Shown here: positions 1 to 12,115 of the stretch, piece by piece
How the letters are laid out: the number at the start of each line of letters is the position of its first letter
Numbering within the stretch: position 1 is the stretch's first letter
Source: Bdellovibrionales bacterium
GTDB taxonomy: Bacteria > Bdellovibrionota > Bdellovibrionia > Bdellovibrionales > DASUEL01
Assembly: GCA_050250255.1 (NCBI GenBank)
Contig: JBFWOZ010000067.1
Coordinates: 1-12,124, forward strand
DNA length: 12,124 nucleotides
Reading direction: 5' to 3'
Notes under the pieces: model-generated
Database searches by the model: none
What the model saw: the letters and a program-made list of their open reading frames with translations, nothing else
Told to the model about the DNA's origin: nothing
Made by a program: the position numbers and the translations under genes

Positions 1-89
1 TTCTGCTTCGAAGTTCAGAAAGGCTGAAATATCTCAGCAGCCGACTGTGACTAACACGGGTTCAAGCATCACCGAAAAGTAGGTTCGAT

Positions 90-347
90 TTATCGGTTGA
101 TAGGTTTCTTAGATGACTCTTGCGCTGCTGGAGTCGTTTCTTTTTTTGCAGCCGTATTGGCCGTTAGAGGTACATCGGCTTTCGCGCAAATAGCACAACT
201 CGTTTTTGTTTGATCCTGAAAGTCAGCGTCAAAGCTTGCCCCGCCAGTGAGAACATTTTCTTGAGAATCACCGAAATTGGATTCGGCCATGGCATAGCTC
301 ACAGAGCCTAAACTTAAAATCGAAATAAAAAAGAGAACTTTCAACAC
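90..347 (-). CDS. Small secreted, probably disordered CxxC protein; positional/putative homologue of Bdellovibrio Hit (Bd0108)
   Basis: GTG start with AAGGAG SD upstream; Sec signal peptide (MLKVLFFISILSLGSVSYAMA); polar low-complexity mature part with C51-A-I-C54; last gene of the tadA-tadB-YD operon, the position I recall for Bd0108. Confidence 0.7.
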   Translation of the reverse strand: MLKVLFFISILSLGSVSYAMAESNFGDSQENVLTGGASFDADFQDQTKTSCAICAKADVPLTANTAAKKETTPAAQESSKKPINR

Positions 348-378
348 ACCAAACTCCTTCTTGGTTCTTGTAGTACAA

Positions 379-2004
379 CTATAATCCTAAATCAACACCA
401 GCAGGCTCAACAACCTCGAGCAGATTGTTAAACGCCCCAGCAACCTGTACCGCAACGGTAGGGCCGGCGGGGCTATCCACCTTATTGATCTCGCCATTGT
501 TTTTATAAGAAACCTGAAGTGTTCCTACTCCTGGCCGCTCAACAGTGGCGGGTTTGCCAAATTTGTTTTCGTATTTGATATTCACTTGGCGTTTTGCCTG
601 ATCCATCAAACTTGTAATGCGTCCAACATGATCGTAACCAAGGTTTACAATTTGACCTTTTTTGTTTTTCGCATAAGTAAGATTGCATTTATAGTCATAC
701 TTATAGTTTGTCGATAGTCGGCCTTGAGATACTTTGCTGACTTTTTTGCAAGCTTCATCATATTCAAACGCGACTGCCAATTTTCCTTCGGTACGCTTTG
801 CGAGGAGGCCCGTACGTTCGTTATATTCGAATTTTGTTGTTCGACCATTTTTAGTGATGGAAAGAGGGCGTCCAAACACGGGATGGTAAGTGATATCCTG
901 AGTTTCGTTATTGTTCTTAATTAATACGCGAGAAAGATAAGTGTCGCCCTTTTGTTCGTTGGTTTTGTACCAAAACTCATAGCGACCTGTAGTAACGACT
1001 TTGTCGTTACATTTTTTTGTCACAGTAGACCAATAATGTTGTTTTGGATCATCTTTTGAAAGTTCGTACTTGTACTCTTCTTTACAATTGTCGCGGTCTT
1101 TGAAGCTCGTGACCCAGTCTTTGTTCGTATCGTAAGTGATTGTTTTTTTTGTTTTGTCTGGAAAGTCGATGCTCACGAGGTTGTGGAGATCATCGTAAGC
1201 GTAGCGGTACACGTTGCCGAAACCATTTTTAACCGTATCAAGATCATTTAAATTTTTAAATGTATACTCAGCACCTACACCATTTGGACCCGTGATTCGT
1301 TTTACTTTTTTGTTCGAGTAAAAGCTAAAATTGAGCTTCTTTCCGTTGTTATCGACCACATCTCGAAGTGTTTCGCCAGCATAAGTGAAGGCGAGCGAAT
1401 TTCCGTTTTTATCCACGAGTTGTACGAGGCGACCTTGAAAATCAAACTTTTGAGTTTCCCCACCTGGAAGTTTGCGGTGGTAGTAAGAATCACGAAGTTC
1501 GATAAAGTCTGGGCCACGTCCATTCGCCATAAAGCGACCGGCTTTTTGTAATTTCGATTGTAAGCCAAGATCTTCCATCATCTTGTCTCGAAGACGACGA
1601 TCGTTCTTGAGCTGGTTTGTTAAGTCGCTCAAGTAAGATCTCGTGAGATGAGAGCTTGTGCTTCTGAGTTTGGTAATTATTTGTTGAATCACAACATTCA
1701 CATCTTTTTTAGAAACGTTAGATGGCATATAGATCACTTCAAGACCGGCACCACACTCGGTAAGCTTGAGATTTCCTTCGGCGCTAATCTCGAGTGAAGT
1801 CTCGAAATCGGAGCACCAACCAAATCCGAACATACCGTTGAAGAGTGAGCGGCTGTTGTAAGTTCGCTGTACGCGAAGGTTATAGCCAGACCCCTGGATC
1901 TCAAGATCTATCCACGTTTCAGCGTAGTTGGCGTTTCTCATATCGACTAATGCGAAAGCAGAAACTGGAAGAAGCGAGATTAAAAGAATGAAGTGTTTCA
2001 TCAT
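379..2004 (-). CDS. Secreted YD-repeat/RHS-like protein with DUF6531-type N-terminal domain (Bd0109-like)
   Basis: AGGAG SD; signal peptide; DLEIQGSGYNLRVQRTYNS...GMFGFGW motif typical of RHS N-termini; many YD-type repeats (FDFQGRLVQLVDKNGN, YAYDDLHNLVSIDFPD, YDHVGRITSLMDQ); no RHS-core DPxG motif or toxin tail. Confidence 0.88.
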   Translation of the reverse strand: MMKHFILLISLLPVSAFALVDMRNANYAETWIDLEIQGSGYNLRVQRTYNSRSLFNGMFGFGWCSDFETSLEISAEGNLKLTECGAGLEVIYMPSNVSKKDVNVVIQQIITKLRSTSSHLTRSYLSDLTNQLKNDRRLRDKMMEDLGLQSKLQKAGRFMANGRGPDFIELRDSYYHRKLPGGETQKFDFQGRLVQLVDKNGNSLAFTYAGETLRDVVDNNGKKLNFSFYSNKKVKRITGPNGVGAEYTFKNLNDLDTVKNGFGNVYRYAYDDLHNLVSIDFPDKTKKTITYDTNKDWVTSFKDRDNCKEEYKYELSKDDPKQHYWSTVTKKCNDKVVTTGRYEFWYKTNEQKGDTYLSRVLIKNNNETQDITYHPVFGRPLSITKNGRTTKFEYNERTGLLAKRTEGKLAVAFEYDEACKKVSKVSQGRLSTNYKYDYKCNLTYAKNKKGQIVNLGYDHVGRITSLMDQAKRQVNIKYENKFGKPATVERPGVGTLQVSYKNNGEINKVDSPAGPTVAVQVAGAFNNLLEVVEPAGVDLGL

Positions 2005-2019
2005 TTCCGTGACTCCTGG

Positions 2020-2895
2020 TTACACTTTGATTTTAACAATATTTCGAATCATCAAGCCACCCGTAATTTGGAGGGCTAGCATTGCGAGCAAGAAGAAAAC
2101 ACCTAAGGTCGTGGTGAAGAGAGGTCTGATGTACGCTGGGTCCATAATGGCGAACATAAACAGAAGAAAAAATGGAACCATGGTGATGATAACTCCTTGC
2201 ATGACCCCTTGAGCAGTTAAAGCTTCGATTTTCTTTTCAATCTTCTGTCTTTCACGAATTGTCTCGACGATAGTCGAGAAAGTTTCGCCGAGATTACCGC
2301 CGGTTTCCCTTAAAATATTCACCGACAGCACAAACATTTGTACTTCTGCTCTGGGAATACGGTTTGCGAGTCCAGTAAGGGCTTCTTCATAGCTTAGCCC
2401 TAATCTCATTTGTGAGATTACTAGACCAAACTCCTGGCTGATCGGATTTCCCATGTTTTCTACAACACGTTCCATAGATTGAGGAACACTAAGTCCACTT
2501 CGTACACCGTTGCCCATAATAGTAAGTCCGTCCACCATTTGATCACCAAATTGTGAACAACGTTTGTTGTACATGTAATCCACTATGTATTTTGGAAGCG
2601 TCCAGCCGAGGGCGGTCATAATACAAAACATCAATGTCGCTGGAAAAAAATTTGGCCAGAGGAGAAGAAAAAATAAAAAGCCAATTCCAAAACTCATAAG
2701 GAGCATGACAATGGTAATGCGCTTTTGATCAATCTCCACGAACATAAGATCAAGCTTTTGAATTACATAATCTCGCTGCCCTAAGCTTTTTCGGTGAAGC
2801 CAACTAAGAATCGTATCAGACCAGTTATAGCTCACGATAAAAATGGAAATACCCAAAAGCGGAATAAGCACCCAATCGTTCGAAAAAATTCCCAT
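2020..2895 (-). CDS. tadB: Tad/Flp pilus inner-membrane platform protein TadB (T2SS F family)
   Basis: N-terminal TM segments; DGLTIMGNGVRSGLSVPQS and ETGGNLGETFSTIVETIRERQKIEKKIEALTAQG motifs; two C-terminal TM segments; ATG overlaps the ATPase TAA (TAATG coupling). Confidence 0.9.
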   Translation of the reverse strand: MGIFSNDWVLIPLLGISIFIVSYNWSDTILSWLHRKSLGQRDYVIQKLDLMFVEIDQKRITIVMLLMSFGIGFLFFLLLWPNFFPATLMFCIMTALGWTLPKYIVDYMYNKRCSQFGDQMVDGLTIMGNGVRSGLSVPQSMERVVENMGNPISQEFGLVISQMRLGLSYEEALTGLANRIPRAEVQMFVLSVNILRETGGNLGETFSTIVETIRERQKIEKKIEALTAQGVMQGVIITMVPFFLLFMFAIMDPAYIRPLFTTTLGVFFLLAMLALQITGGLMIRNIVKIKV

Positions 2896-5081
2896 TAGCT
2901 ACCTCCGCTTGCTTTTTTTACAGGTGGAGTGTTCTGTGGATTTGTTGAAGTCGTATTATTGGTGAAAAGAGTTCTTGGAATCTTCACACCTCGTCGTTCA
3001 AACTCTTCAATGAAAGAAGGGATCAATCCCATAGCCTGGAATTGGCCAATGATTTTTCTATTTTTATCAAAGCCTTCTTCTTTGAATCGGAAAATTTCCT
3101 GTAGGGTCACTGTTTCTCCCTGCATGCCGACAACTTCTGTAATACTAATGATTTTTCGTGTACCATCAGAAAGACGAGAAATTTGGATGATTAAATCTAC
3201 CGCACCAGCAATTTGTTCGCGAATCGCGCGTGCGGGTAAATCCATTCCTGCCATCATACAGAGAGTTTCTAAGCGACCGATGGCTTCGCGAGGACTGTTT
3301 GAGTGAACCGTTGTCATAGACCCATCGTGACCGGTGTTCATGGCAGAAAGCATATCTAAAGCTTCACCACCCCGACACTCTCCTACAATGATTCGATCAG
3401 GACGCATACGAAGTGTGTTGCGAACAAGATCGCGGATTGTGACCGAGCCGGTACCCTCCATGTTCGCAGGTCGCGTTTCAAGCCTCACGACGTGAGTTTG
3501 TTTCAATTGAAGTTCGGCGGCATCTTCTACCGTGATAATTCTTTCGGTCGTAGGGATAAAGCTTGAAAGCACATTGAGAAGTGTGGTTTTACCAGATCCG
3601 GTACCGCCCGAAACAATTACGTTCAGTCCGTTTTCCACACAGATTTTTAGGAAATCGACCATGGATTGAGTCATCGATCCCCATTCGAGGTAATTTTTTG
3701 TCGTGATAGGTTTTTTAGCGAATTTACGAATTGTCACTGCAGGGCCATCAATTGAAAGAGGTTCAATAATGGCGTGCACTCGGCTTCCATCTTTTAAGCG
3801 CGCATCCACATAAGGTGTTTTTTCATCAATGCGGCGGCCAAGAGGAGTCACGATACGTTCGATCACGTTTCTTAATTGTAAATTCGAGGTGAATGTCACA
3901 TCGCTTTTTTGAACTTTGCCTGATTTTTCTACGAAAATGGTATCCCGTCCATTCACCATGATTTCCGTTACGCTTTCATCATTGAGAAGATCTTCGAGAG
4001 GGCCGAGGGCCAAAGCCTCGTCTAAGATTTCTTTCACAACTTGGACGCGTTCGTTACGAGGCATATTTGCCTGTTCACGATCTACGAGTTGAGAGATCAC
4101 CTGCTGTGTCTTTTGTTTAAGCGCTAATTCTTTTGCTGGATCACCATTTGTATCCGTGAGCCCTTTTTTGAGATCAAGTGCTTTAATGAGTTCTGAGTGA
4201 ATACGCATTTTGAGAAGCGTTCGCGGATCCAGTGGCTTCACGGCCGGTTTCATGGGACTTGCATCATCGCTTGTCGTTTCAGATTTTTTGATTTGCAAAG
4301 TGGTGGGACGTTGCACGTTTTGTAGACGCTGCAAAATTCCACCAGATGCAATATTTCGAGCGAGATCGTGGTAACTGGCACTCATAGGAGTTTTACTTTG
4401 GCTCACGACAAAAGGACTTGAGCGTTGTAAAGCAGCGGTCGCAGTCACATCATCTTGAGGAATAACCGCGATGACTTGTTTGCGTAAAGTTTGCGAAACC
4501 ATTTGTGGGGATAGCCCATTCGGGCTTGTCTTATTAAGAACTATTTGAATCATATCGCTGGGTAATGTGGCGCGAGCTAATTCATTCAGTAATCGGTAAG
4601 TTTGATTGACGGCGAGAATCTCTGGAGTCGTCAGAACTAAGCACAAAGTAGAAACGGTGAGTGTGCTCATCTGTACGGGGCCTAATTCGGAACCAAGATC
4701 GATAATAATGTAATTGAAGAATCGAGTAAGGTTTTCAAGAGTTCTCACGAGAGTATCAGGTTCGCATCCTAATTGTTCGTCGGGAGATCGCACGGCCGCT
4801 AAATAATAAATTCCGTTAGGATGTTTTGTGAGAAGAGTTGGAATTGTTTGTGCCGTCAATGCCCCCGTATATTGAGTGAGCTCGCGTACGGTTTTTGTAG
4901 GTTTTAAGCCGGTGATGATATTTTGATCTCCACAGCTTTTACTATCGAGATCTATTAAGAGAACAGAGCCGCGTGTTTCAATAGGGAGAGTGAGTGCGAA
5001 GTTCGCCGCAAAGACACTTTTCCCCACGCCGCCTTTTCCACCAATGACTGAAATGATGTGACCTGTATTTTGCGAAGACAC
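2895..5081 (-). CDS. tadA: Fusion of TadZ/CpaE (MinD/ParA-like) domain and TadA/CpaF pilus assembly ATPase
   Basis: GTG start with GAGGGAG SD; N-terminal deviant Walker [10 protein letters not shown] and LLIDLD; C-terminal Walker [10 protein letters not shown], Asp box ITVEDAAEL, Walker [15 protein letters not shown], His box [15 protein letters not shown]. Confidence 0.92.
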
Positions 5082-5106
5082 TTTTAAGATCTCCCTCGTT
5101 GTTAAC

Positions 5107-5134
5107 TTGTCGGAATTTATAAGCTTTTTTATTA
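5107..5134 (-). promoter_or_regulatory. Weak sigma28 (FliA)-like promoter candidate for the tad/hit-like operon
   Basis: Minus strand TAAT-N16-TCCGACAA versus consensus TAAA-N15-GCCGATAA, 25 nt upstream of the GTG start; spacing and -35 are imperfect. Confidence 0.35.
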
Positions 5135-5192
5135 CTCATGAGAGCAAGATCAGGACTAACGATGAGTGCGAGAAACGGGACATATGTCGCAT

Positions 5193-5219
5193 TAAGAGGA
5201 TCTCGGAATGAGCCGAATA
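5193..5219 (+). promoter_or_regulatory. Sigma28 (FliA)-type promoter
   Basis: TAAG(5193-5196)-N15-GCCGAATA(5212-5219), canonical spacing, about 75 nt upstream of ATG 5294. Confidence 0.7.
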
Positions 5220-5228
5220 TTTATTCAA

Positions 5229-5289
5229 GCCAGGACGGCCCATTTTTACAAAGACCAGGATGGTAACTACTGAACCAGGGAAAGGGTTC
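5229..5289 (+). promoter_or_regulatory. Three GGA-in-loop hairpins in the 5' UTR; putative CsrA/RsmA binding sites
   Basis: GCC-AGGAC-GGC (5229-5239), ACC-AGGAT-GGT (5254-5264), GAACC-AGGGAAAG-GGTTC (5272-5289, over the SD region). Confidence 0.6.
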
Positions 5290-5293
5290 TTTT

Positions 5294-6073
5294 ATGTTTG
5301 CCAGATGGTTTGGCTATTCTATTCTTGTTGTCGCCTTTGTTGGGCTTCTCAGTTTTTTCTGTGAAATTGCTTACTCTCGAGAAGTCGCGATATTTTCCGT
5401 CAATAAAACATTGCAGATGGATCCTGATGAACCTGTTTACCACGATTACTATATAAGTGGTGGATCAGAACAAGGATTTAGAACGGGTATGCAAGTCACG
5501 GTGATTCGTAGAGTTCCCGTACATGATCTCTCCCGTAATCGAGCGCTAGGTGATCTTCGGTTACCAATTGCAAAATTAAAATTAATCTTTGTTCAAAAAG
5601 GGATGGCTGTAGGTCGTCTGGCAACTCTGACCTCCGCAAAAAATTCGCCGATCGTGGATTATAATGGGGTCATGATTGGCGATGCAATCTCTCTTGGTAA
5701 CGGACTGGATGCTAACGGCATTATGGAAGTAAACGAAGAGGGTGAAGGAAATTCGGGTAAAAGTGAATCAGGTGATTCGACTCTTAAATCAGAAGGTACT
5801 TCAGATGAAAAAGCAGAGTCTAAATCTGAAGTACCTGCCGCAGTAGAGTCGACGTCTGCCGCACCGGAGGGAGCTCCAGAGCCAGCTCCTCTTACGCCTG
5901 AGGAAATCACTAAGAACCTTATGCCGAAAGAGACGAAGACAGATGTTTCCTCGCGAGTACCAGCCGCGGCAGAGCCTAAGCCTGCGAAACCAAAAGAAAA
6001 ACAACAGCCAAGCGCGGTTCCTCATAAAGCCGACCCTGCTGTCGAAAACACCCTCCTAGCTCCAAAAGCTTAG
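5294..6073 (+). CDS. Exported hypothetical protein: small beta domain (FlgT C-terminal-like by eye) plus long E/S/P/A/K-rich disordered tail
   Basis: 259-aa ORF; hydrophobic N-terminus; YISGGSEQGFRTGMQVTVIR...IAKLKLIFV...VMIGDAI pattern; C-terminal half is low complexity. Confidence 0.75.
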   Translation: MFARWFGYSILVVAFVGLLSFFCEIAYSREVAIFSVNKTLQMDPDEPVYHDYYISGGSEQGFRTGMQVTVIRRVPVHDLSRNRALGDLRLPIAKLKLIFVQKGMAVGRLATLTSAKNSPIVDYNGVMIGDAISLGNGLDANGIMEVNEEGEGNSGKSESGDSTLKSEGTSDEKAESKSEVPAAVESTSAAPEGAPEPAPLTPEEITKNLMPKETKTDVSSRVPAAAEPKPAKPKEKQQPSAVPHKADPAVENTLLAPKA

Positions 6074-10942: not shown

Positions 10943-12049
10943 TTAAGGAAGTGCGGCGGTCATAGCCGTGGTGTAGCGCTGAATGGAATCTAAAGCGACT
11001 TGTGAAGATTGTCGGACCTCAGGGCTAGCGTCATTTTGAATAAGGTCTTGAAGAATTGGAATGATGGTTCCTTTAAAGTAGGGGCCATGAGCTAAAGGAG
11101 CATCGGCGATGCGACGTTGACGGCCCGTCTTTGCATCTCGTAAGTGAATCTGAGCCGCTTTTGTAATAAGAAGAGATGATTCCATGCGAACTTCTACAAT
11201 TTCTGAATGAAGTCCCTGAGAAAGAATCGCGACACGGTTAAAATCTGTCGCGTAGCTGTCTAAGCTTTTCGCTATCTCTGCCCGTGTCTCTTCATTTTCA
11301 ACATCAGCTTTTGCTCCTACCAACATACTGTAACTTGCAAGCGATGGAGTGGCATTCAAAGCCTTCACGCCCTCGGTTTGTACTTGAGGATCTGAGCTCA
11401 AAAGCATTTCTTTTGTTAGAACGTAGAACCAATCCGGTGAACCGAGAGATCCTTTTTTATAAGACTCAACAAGCTTTTGTGTTTCAGCAGGATTTGCAGA
11501 GTAGACGATCAGAGTACGCCATTGTTCAAGTGTGATGAAAGACGGCTCTTCTTCAGCGATTTGTTTTTCCACATCTTTTTTAACAGGAATCGCAACGGCG
11601 ACAACGTTATCTACATATTCGTCTTGAGTTTTCCAACCATCACCTGTGTAGCGACGTGCTTTTTCTACCTGCGAAGGAGCTTTCACGATGACATTCTTAC
11701 GTTTTTGTTTCTTTTTTTGCGCGAGTTTCTTTTTCTTTTCTTCTTTTTGCTTTTTTGCGACGAGAGCGGCAATTTTCTTTAACGTCTCTTGGGTCTCTTT
11801 ACTTTCTACGACGGTCTTAATTTCTTCTGTTGTTTTAAAAGATCCCCATACTGGAACTGCGGGAGCTTTTTTTGCGAGTGCAGGAACTTTGAAAGTGGAA
11901 GCCTTCATGTCGAAACTAATCTCTTCGTTATCTTTGGAAGTGTCTCGAATTGGTTCAATGTCGACATTGCTTGCACGTAGGCTCATCCAAACCACAAACA
12001 GAAAGCTTGTAGCTACGGCTCCGATGAGTTTTGGGTTTTTCGCATCCAT
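10943..12049 (-). CDS. Membrane-anchored hypothetical protein with Lys-rich linker and C-terminal HEAT/ARM-like helical region
   Basis: AGGAG SD; N-terminal TM helix; KKQKEEKKKKLAQKKKQKRK tract; SSDPQVQTEGVKAL, IVEVRMESSLLI and DASPEVRQSSQVAL resemble HEAT repeats. Confidence 0.8.
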   Translation of the reverse strand: MDAKNPKLIGAVATSFLFVVWMSLRASNVDIEPIRDTSKDNEEISFDMKASTFKVPALAKKAPAVPVWGSFKTTEEIKTVVESKETQETLKKIAALVAKKQKEEKKKKLAQKKKQKRKNVIVKAPSQVEKARRYTGDGWKTQDEYVDNVVAVAIPVKKDVEKQIAEEEPSFITLEQWRTLIVYSANPAETQKLVESYKKGSLGSPDWFYVLTKEMLLSSDPQVQTEGVKALNATPSLASYSMLVGAKADVENEETRAEIAKSLDSYATDFNRVAILSQGLHSEIVEVRMESSLLITKAAQIHLRDAKTGRQRRIADAPLAHGPYFKGTIIPILQDLIQNDASPEVRQSSQVALDSIQRYTTAMTAALP

Positions 12050-12100: not shown

Positions 12101-12115
12101 GCACGCTTTGTGCCA
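12101..12115 (-). promoter_or_regulatory. Sigma54 (RpoN) -24/-12 promoter
   Basis: Minus strand TGGCAC-AAAGC-GTGC: GG-N10-GC spacing, about 50 nt upstream of ATG 12049. Confidence 0.65.

Follow-up and report, generated by a model that had tools for sequence, protein, structure and literature searches.

Does the small exported peptide encoded at the end of a tad operon in a Bdellovibrionales genome take the place of Bd0108 (Hit), and if it does, which of its residues would do the work? We put this question to a stretch of 12,124 nt, positions 1 to 12,124 of contig JBFWOZ010000067.1 and hereafter the window, in which an 85-codon reading frame (gene 1) lies directly behind an orthologue of Bd0109, at the end of the operon, and faces the 3' end of another small gene (gene 2). 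The features on which the argument draws are the following.

2..82, plus strand: 3' end (last 26 codons) of gene 2, convergent with gene 1
90..347, minus strand: gene 1, an 85-aa Hit/Bd0108-type ORF with a GTG start, 31 nt behind the YD stop codon
153..167, minus strand: post-Cys motif L61-T-A-N-T65, of the form [LIFM]-x-x-[DNS]-T, a predicted docking strand 7 aa past Cys54
186..197, minus strand: CAIC (aa 51-54), with Cys51 and Cys54 a putative intramolecular disulfide, as Bd0108 C56-C59
291..347, minus strand: predicted Sec signal peptide (aa 1-19), from sequence and hydropathy, probably cleaved after S-Y-A or A-M-A
354..359, minus strand: Shine-Dalgarno AAGGAG, 6 nt ahead of the GTG
379..2004, minus strand: YD/RHS-repeat protein of 541 aa, the Bd0109 orthologue, with DUF6531 and YD repeats
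YD protein residues N24, A25, W297, Y313, L315, Y324 and F344: predicted peptide pocket, from a complex model and conservation
2020..2895, minus strand: TadB (T2SSF), context
2895..5081, minus strand: fusion of a ParA/MinD-like part, which we take to be CpaE-type, with the TadA ATPase, context

The tad operon begins at this fusion (window 2895-5294), with a divergent gene of no known type at 5294, and pilin and secretin genes are not adjacent to it in the window.

The gene 1 peptide runs from Lys and a hydrophobic N-terminus through an acidic segment and CAIC to an Ala/Thr/Lys-rich tail and a terminal Arg. By hydropathy and the A-x-A rule its N-terminus carries a predicted export signal, and its mature part is likely disordered, with which both a mean hydropathy of -0.65 and the pLDDT of 0.29 of its Atlas model are consistent. 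Two cysteines randomly placed in 66 aa would give CxxC with p=0.029. Database searches pass the peptide by: BLASTP against a 101-aa Bd0108-type protein gave no similarity (E=76), the NCBIfam equivalog NF053838 hit_Bd0108 (cut-off at least 40 bits) did not match it at E<=0.1 and exceeded its cut-off nowhere in the window's genome (G000), Pfam and NCBIfam held no family for it, the Atlas returned no fold match (top feature scores of at most 0.82, leads only, with a PatX-family row at 0.79), and a profile search with our alignment A3 found 4 proteins only. The NPGEDPNEA segment with its DPN is absent, and GDSQENV stands there instead. On these points the first-pass annotation read the locus well: the ORF is real, with signal peptide, acidic part, CAIC and polar tail, it resembles Bd0108 by position, and ordinary annotation does miss it. 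Its picture of Bd0108 also holds, as the accessible text of PMC4267844 describes a disordered protein of 101 aa with an oxidised C56-C59 disulfide that binds Bd0109.

The order tadB, YD gene, small exported ORF is what ties gene 1 to Bd0108. The YD protein of the window shows 49% full-length identity to the Bd0109 of B. bacteriovorus type in locus L006, whose 101-aa Bd0108-type neighbour is the same as in a named strain record (L082). Its structure model is a beta shell (pLDDT 88) of Rhs-like fold; PDB sequence and fold searches with it returned distant Rhs/teneurin shells only, and no solved structure of any Bd0109-family protein. A survey of 221 YD loci, reduced to 189 with enough downstream DNA and then to 141 that were non-redundant, placed a small signal-peptide ORF behind the YD gene in 131, or 129 once two calls (L045 and L054) with no credible signal peptide or RBS were dropped, and tadB less than 1 kb upstream in 127 of 130. 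By position gene 1 is very probably the Bd0108 orthologue, and its product is likely this lineage's Bd0108 (Hit) counterpart. When the 120 small signal-peptide ORFs of the genome were ranked by an HMM of the mature gene-1 set, built without the window, L002, L142 and L143, the window peptide came first, as it did with an HMM of gene 2. Its gene-1 score of 9.3 bits is not significant (70 of 500 Cys-fixed shuffles match it); its gene-2 score of 15.3 bits, from an alignment of C...LTANT, was equalled by none of 1000 such shuffles.

Twelve loci lack a small ORF behind the YD gene, eight of them in family f2 (L044, L045, L053, L054, L055, L057, L059 and L060), where the YD gene has neither small peptide gene nearby.

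The cysteines follow a looser pattern than the window alone would suggest. Five of the 131 peptides have no Cys, five have one, 93 have two, four have three, 22 have four and two have six, an even number (two, four or six) in 117. CxxC is the commonest spacing, present in 62 of 129 counterparts (6.5 in shuffles), and some close Cys pair occurs in 112 of them; about 50 carry CC, CxC, Cx3C, Cx4C, Cx6C or Cx8C instead, and the window's own clade mixes CKVC, CLNGC and CFNC. Mapped on the YD tree, a three-state Cys label switches state 39 times, against 62.6 when shuffled. From the variable spacing and the even counts we infer that the pair serves as a structural disulfide and not as a metal or thioredoxin-type site, which would call for fixed CxxC spacing and a conserved fold or ligand set; here the spacing varies and neither Pfam nor fold searches gave a match. 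The supposition that little besides CxxC and gene position would be conserved in the small ORFs behind YD genes, and that CxxC is the sole obvious motif of this one, thus gave way: positional homologues do carry CxxC far more often than chance would have it, but its spacing is not fixed, fewer than half of them have it, and beside it stand LTANT (aa 61-65) and the R/K/Q/N residue with which peptides of the family tend to end. A DPN motif (Bd0108 32-40) also recurs, in 43 of 129 gene-1 counterparts against 4.0 by chance, and is mostly missing from gene 2 as from the window peptide.

We spotted the post-Cys motif [LIFM]xx[DNS]T by eye in loci L001-L061, allowing it 2-20 aa after a Cys, and then tested it on the remaining peptides. 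It occurs in 15 of 40 discovery peptides (null 1.7), in 16 of 84 held-out ones (null 3.0+-1.7, maximum 11 of 1000) and in 24 of 88 gene 2 peptides (null 3.4); several regular expressions were tried, all seven of them enriched in the held-out peptides, and de novo Gibbs sampling recovers the motif in the gene-1 and gene-2 sets alike. It lies 7-11 aa past the Cys in 40 of 45 gene-1 matches and 8-9 aa past it in 30 of 41 gene-2 matches. Only a minority of gene-1 peptides show a recognisable motif (31 of 124 by a strict and 47 of 124 by a loose definition, 25-38%), and it is not commoner than CxxC; what sets it apart is its presence in both paralogues. Outside the order, 16 of 20 loci have similar Cys peptides, the motif is found in 0 of 27 peptides, and YD residues A25, W297 and F344 are mostly replaced. 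A literature search, with most subscription papers outside its reach, brought up no account of the motif, nor is it mentioned in the accessible portions of PMC12075869, PMC2797640, PMC5430801, PMC13689555 and 10.1101/2020.08.18.256230.

In Bd0108 the equivalent is R74-H-D-D-T78, which the sequence GKGSRLSDDTT of locus L090 bridges to the family motif. These residues fall inside the 42-bp host-independence deletion, the lesion of the commonest prey-independent Bdellovibrio mutant, which lies between 10-bp repeats and removes Bd0108 residues 73-86, RRHDDTVSREIKGS. The accessible text of PMC3818213 reports that this deletion allele does not complement and that a transposon after codon 64 of bd0108 also gives the host-independent phenotype, and that of PMC11323537 lists a frameshift at residue 73 among the host-independent alleles; all three keep CxxC and lose the motif segment. 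Compared with Bd0108 of B. bacteriovorus HD100, the window peptide has the same place in the tad operon, after the YD gene, a signal peptide, a polar and likely disordered mature part, a central CxxC, the post-Cys motif and a C-terminal Q/R. It differs in its length of 85 against 101 aa, in the similarity searches and the DPN segment already noted, and in a motif that begins with Leu rather than Arg and stands at 7 residues from the Cys, not 15.

Gene 2 is only partly in the window. Window positions 1-254 overlap positions 1-254 of contig C58 of the same genome (L222) in reverse orientation, with 247 of 254 identical and six T/A and one A/G differences, so that the two contigs are adjacent. 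Within gene 1 they differ by K81N and by two changes that are synonymous, with stop, frame, CAIC and LTANT the same; sequencing run X1, whose contig covers the window without gaps, agrees with C58 at 89, 105 and 114, and may be the source data and so not independent. The full gene 2 (C58:385-173) encodes 70 aa with a single Cys and an RLGSAT motif behind a promoter-like, sigma54-type TGGCA-N-GC. Its stop codon is 7 nt from that of gene 1, which leaves no room for a terminator, so that antisense overlap of the two convergent transcripts would be expected; the genes are co-directional in most other loci, and L035 is a further locus with an inverted copy. Gene 2 is separated from the bd0103 homologue by an inserted signal-peptide ORF of 376 aa (L222:738-1868, plus strand), without an NCBIfam match and kinase-like by eye only.

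Across 90 loci gene 2 is a shorter exported peptide, encoded some 300-630 nt downstream; 85 of these peptides have a single Cys, and none has CxxC. A sigma54-type promoter precedes it in 58 of the 90, against 0.4 expected; gene 1 has one in 1 of 129 loci (0.8 expected), and a sigma54 scan of the window stays at chance level (13 against 8.8), the genome-wide pattern being uninformative. At window 12101-12115, on the minus strand, a sigma54-like TGGCAC-N-TGC lies 52 nt upstream of a 368-aa HEAT-like ORF (10943-12049). Full-length gene-1 and gene-2 profiles aligned in hhalign through their signal peptides alone. A search for gene-2-like peptides elsewhere in three f2 genomes and G001, in which the positive control G019 was recovered, met only longer, unrelated signal-peptide proteins, a result that at its low sensitivity does not amount to absence.

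A counterpart of gene 2 already stands in the published record under other names. PMC3818213, in its accessible part, describes a 261-nt 'sRNA' between bd0103 and bd0108 that is up in all bd0108 mutants, and treats the region as non-coding; the accessible text of PMC5941755 names the downstream hypothetical protein BD_RS00505. In genome G061 a 66-aa ORF (96,483-96,683; L223:1429-1629), exported, with a single Cys and a sigma54-type promoter, falls inside the 'sRNA' interval and contains both RT-PCR primers, and against three relatives its synonymous changes dominate (13:3, 11:1 and 14:3). Window gene 2 is the counterpart of BD_RS00505, a short exported peptide with one Cys, the same motif and the same type of promoter, and it differs in its inverted orientation and in the 376-aa gene inserted ahead of the bd0103 homologue. 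PMC10469934 likewise describes, for 20 Bdellovibrionales bins, arrays of two or three short genes with signal peptides near Bd0103/Bd0109 homologues, in the position considered here; its accessible portion contains no motif, Cys-pattern or docking analysis.

To what, then, would the motif bind? We modelled residues 19-541 of the YD protein together with residues 21-85 of the gene 1 peptide. The complex scored 0.67, against 0.00 for the best control, and passes a mark that 116 of 157 solved and 2 of 215 mismatched pairs reach, counts that are only roughly valid with our own alignments; between runs at least 75% of the contacts coincide, and the partner pLDDT is at least 51. The 25 contact pairs of least error all fall at peptide residues 55-63, led by Leu61, which in the model touches N24, A25, W297, Y313, Y324 and F344 of the YD protein. 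Cys51 is not among these contacts and Cys54 sits at the edge of the predicted interface; residues 36-47 are also listed as contacts. On the YD side the contacts fall on alternate residues, which suggests one face of a sheet. Binding of the peptide to the YD protein is thus predicted, and the model supports it without demonstrating it.

The interface positions of the YD protein are more conserved than the rest (0.76 against 0.61, p=3e-6). Position 315 is non-hydrophobic in 7 of 11 loci with Arg at the peptide's Leu position and in 6 of 49 others (p=0.001, the top rank among 523 positions; the lineages are scattered, and kin are not independent), a signal that fails Bonferroni over the 523 and concerns a position picked after the model and one example. 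In its acidic-only version this comparison is weak (2 of 12 against 1 of 69), and it was later widened to non-hydrophobic residues. Because the alignment rows (48 of 129) were selected for the motif, neither the model nor the covariation is independent of it. The B. bacteriovorus-type loci, outside this count, have Asp at 315 and Arg in both paralogues. The window YD protein shares DUF6531, YD repeats and an RHS-shell-like fold with Bd0109 and differs from it here, with Leu315 against Asp316 in B. bacteriovorus-type numbering, and we propose Bd0108 R74 and Bd0109 D316 as a compensating pair. We had expected the pocket to be lost in f2 YD proteins, an expectation that we rejected, as all eight keep N24, W297, Y324 and F344 without an adjacent peptide.

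We consider it moderately probable, taking all of this together, that gene 1 encodes an exported Bd0108 counterpart in which CxxC forms a disulfide and Leu61-Thr65 docks in the YD pocket. The idea put forward in the first pass, that CxxC is itself the functional core, be it a switch responding to redox state or metal or the epitope for docking, seems improbable to us. It can claim the commonest spacing (62 of 129 against 6.5), a His within 6 aa in 26 of 62 cases, Cys54 at the interface edge, and the oxidised C56-C59 of Bd0108, for which a redox or helix-seed role has been proposed in the accessible text of PMC4267844, where strain W is also noted to be without CxxC. It fits poorly, however, with the other spacings in some 50 counterparts and the five peptides without Cys, with the 39 label changes on the YD tree (shuffled 62.6), with even Cys counts in 117 of 131 as in structural disulfides, and with a paralogue that has CxxC in none of 90 loci; host-independent alleles lose function with CxxC intact, and the best contacts gather around Leu61, not the cysteines. 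The interaction with the YD protein that the same annotation wished to see predicted was predicted, then, through other residues. Less probable still, indeed very improbable, is that gene 1 is a drifting or silent low-complexity ORF whose likeness to Bd0108 is merely one of position and composition. The BLASTP result, the lack of a Pfam or NCBIfam family and a gene-1 HMM score that is not significant past Cys and composition would all agree with such drift, but the RBS and signal peptide are intact, the layout recurs in 129 of 141 loci, no shuffle in 1000 reached the gene-2 HMM score, the complex model passes its mark, and in the B. bacteriovorus-type orthologues the changes are mostly synonymous.

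A weightier alternative, which we nonetheless regard as rather unlikely, gives the peptide two faces: its N-terminal half, together with the CxxC helix, would form a fuzzy complex with the YD protein, as measured for Bd0108, and a third partner, perhaps a sensor that feeds a sigma54 activator, would recognise the post-Cys motif. The accessible text of PMC4267844 describes a fuzzy Bd0108-Bd0109 complex of about 3:1 with a Kd of 45 uM, in which titration with Bd0109 costs Bd0108 residues 24-66 90-100% of their NMR signal and residues 74-85 a moderate part; we count this preference for 24-66 against motif docking; the two could be reconciled if the B. bacteriovorus motif were degenerate and displaced. 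In the same work Prehna et al. proposed encapsulation by Bd0109 and expected an unknown further partner. The transcript covering gene 2 that rises in all bd0108 mutants, the sigma54-type promoters (58 of 90 against 0.4), the f2 YD proteins that keep the pocket with no neighbouring peptide, and the model contacts at residues 36-47 would also suit a third partner. Against it stand the least-error contacts, all at 55-63, the covariation of YD position 315 with a motif residue, and the near absence of DPN from the window peptide and gene 2. For the deletion form, Capeness et al. speculated that it binds more strongly (PMC3818213, accessible part), which we likewise count against docking through the motif.

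On the reading that we favour, docking of Leu61-Thr65 in the YD pocket, the peptide would be made with the tad operon and then exported, CxxC would form a structural disulfide that clips it, and the Leu61-x-x-x-Thr65 strand would dock in the conserved pocket, as the model predicts. Occupancy of the YD protein might in turn tune pilus extrusion and hold the cell prey-dependent, a physiological role that we infer from B. bacteriovorus genetics, while loss of the motif would release the YD protein and switch on the paralogue, which with its sigma54-type promoter would act as a feedback ligand. A broader form of this scheme is possible, and we offer it tentatively: in the hit locus, Bd0108-type peptides and a sigma54-driven paralogue may compete through Cys-x(7-11)-[LIFMR]-x-x-[DNS]-T for one pocket of the Bd0109 RHS shell, the 42-bp deletion removing the motif, the paralogue being the feedback output, and nearly all members of the order carrying the switch. 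The docking hypothesis itself, if right, would account for the failure of the in-frame 42-bp deletion, in which CxxC survives, and would recast the hit-locus 'sRNA' as a peptide gene. In the two-ligand circuit even members reported without bd0108 would carry the switch; the absence from several relatives given in the accessible parts of PMC11870529 and PMC5941755 may reflect search sensitivity. Bd0108 counterparts at this position have been published before. What is new here is the residue-level docking hypothesis, which names a motif, a Bd0109 pocket and a compensating residue pair for the hit switch.

The C-termini show a further regularity. The last residue is R, K, Q or N in 100 of 129 gene 1 peptides, 65 of 90 gene 2 peptides and 26 of 27 outside the order, as against 29% of the 1754 long ORFs of the window's genome, and a G-x-[RKQN] end occurs in 38 of 129 and 20 of 90 of the two paralogues. 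Perhaps a common reader lies behind this bias, or it shields the peptides from tail-specific proteases. A protease link of this kind was set aside, as Bd0108 is not cleaved by Bd0967 according to the accessible text of bioRxiv 10.64898/2026.06.08.730854. Within a genome the last 5 aa of the two paralogues resemble each other more closely than they do between nearest relatives (4.09 against 1.68, p=0.004).

Several loci depart from the common form. In the gene-1 variants of L048, L050, L051 and L052 a first Cys lies close to the start and a second at the C-terminal end (DPF-x-x-PC), and a disulfide loop of 50-60 residues is possible. Genome G022 has two YD genes (L028 and L061): behind the tad-linked one comes a Cys-free peptide with GEDPN, and behind the other a CxxC peptide that lacks GEDPN. 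Two loci titled Bacillota and Streptomyces (L069 and L127) are typical Bdellovibrionales hit loci and probably come from mislabelled bins.
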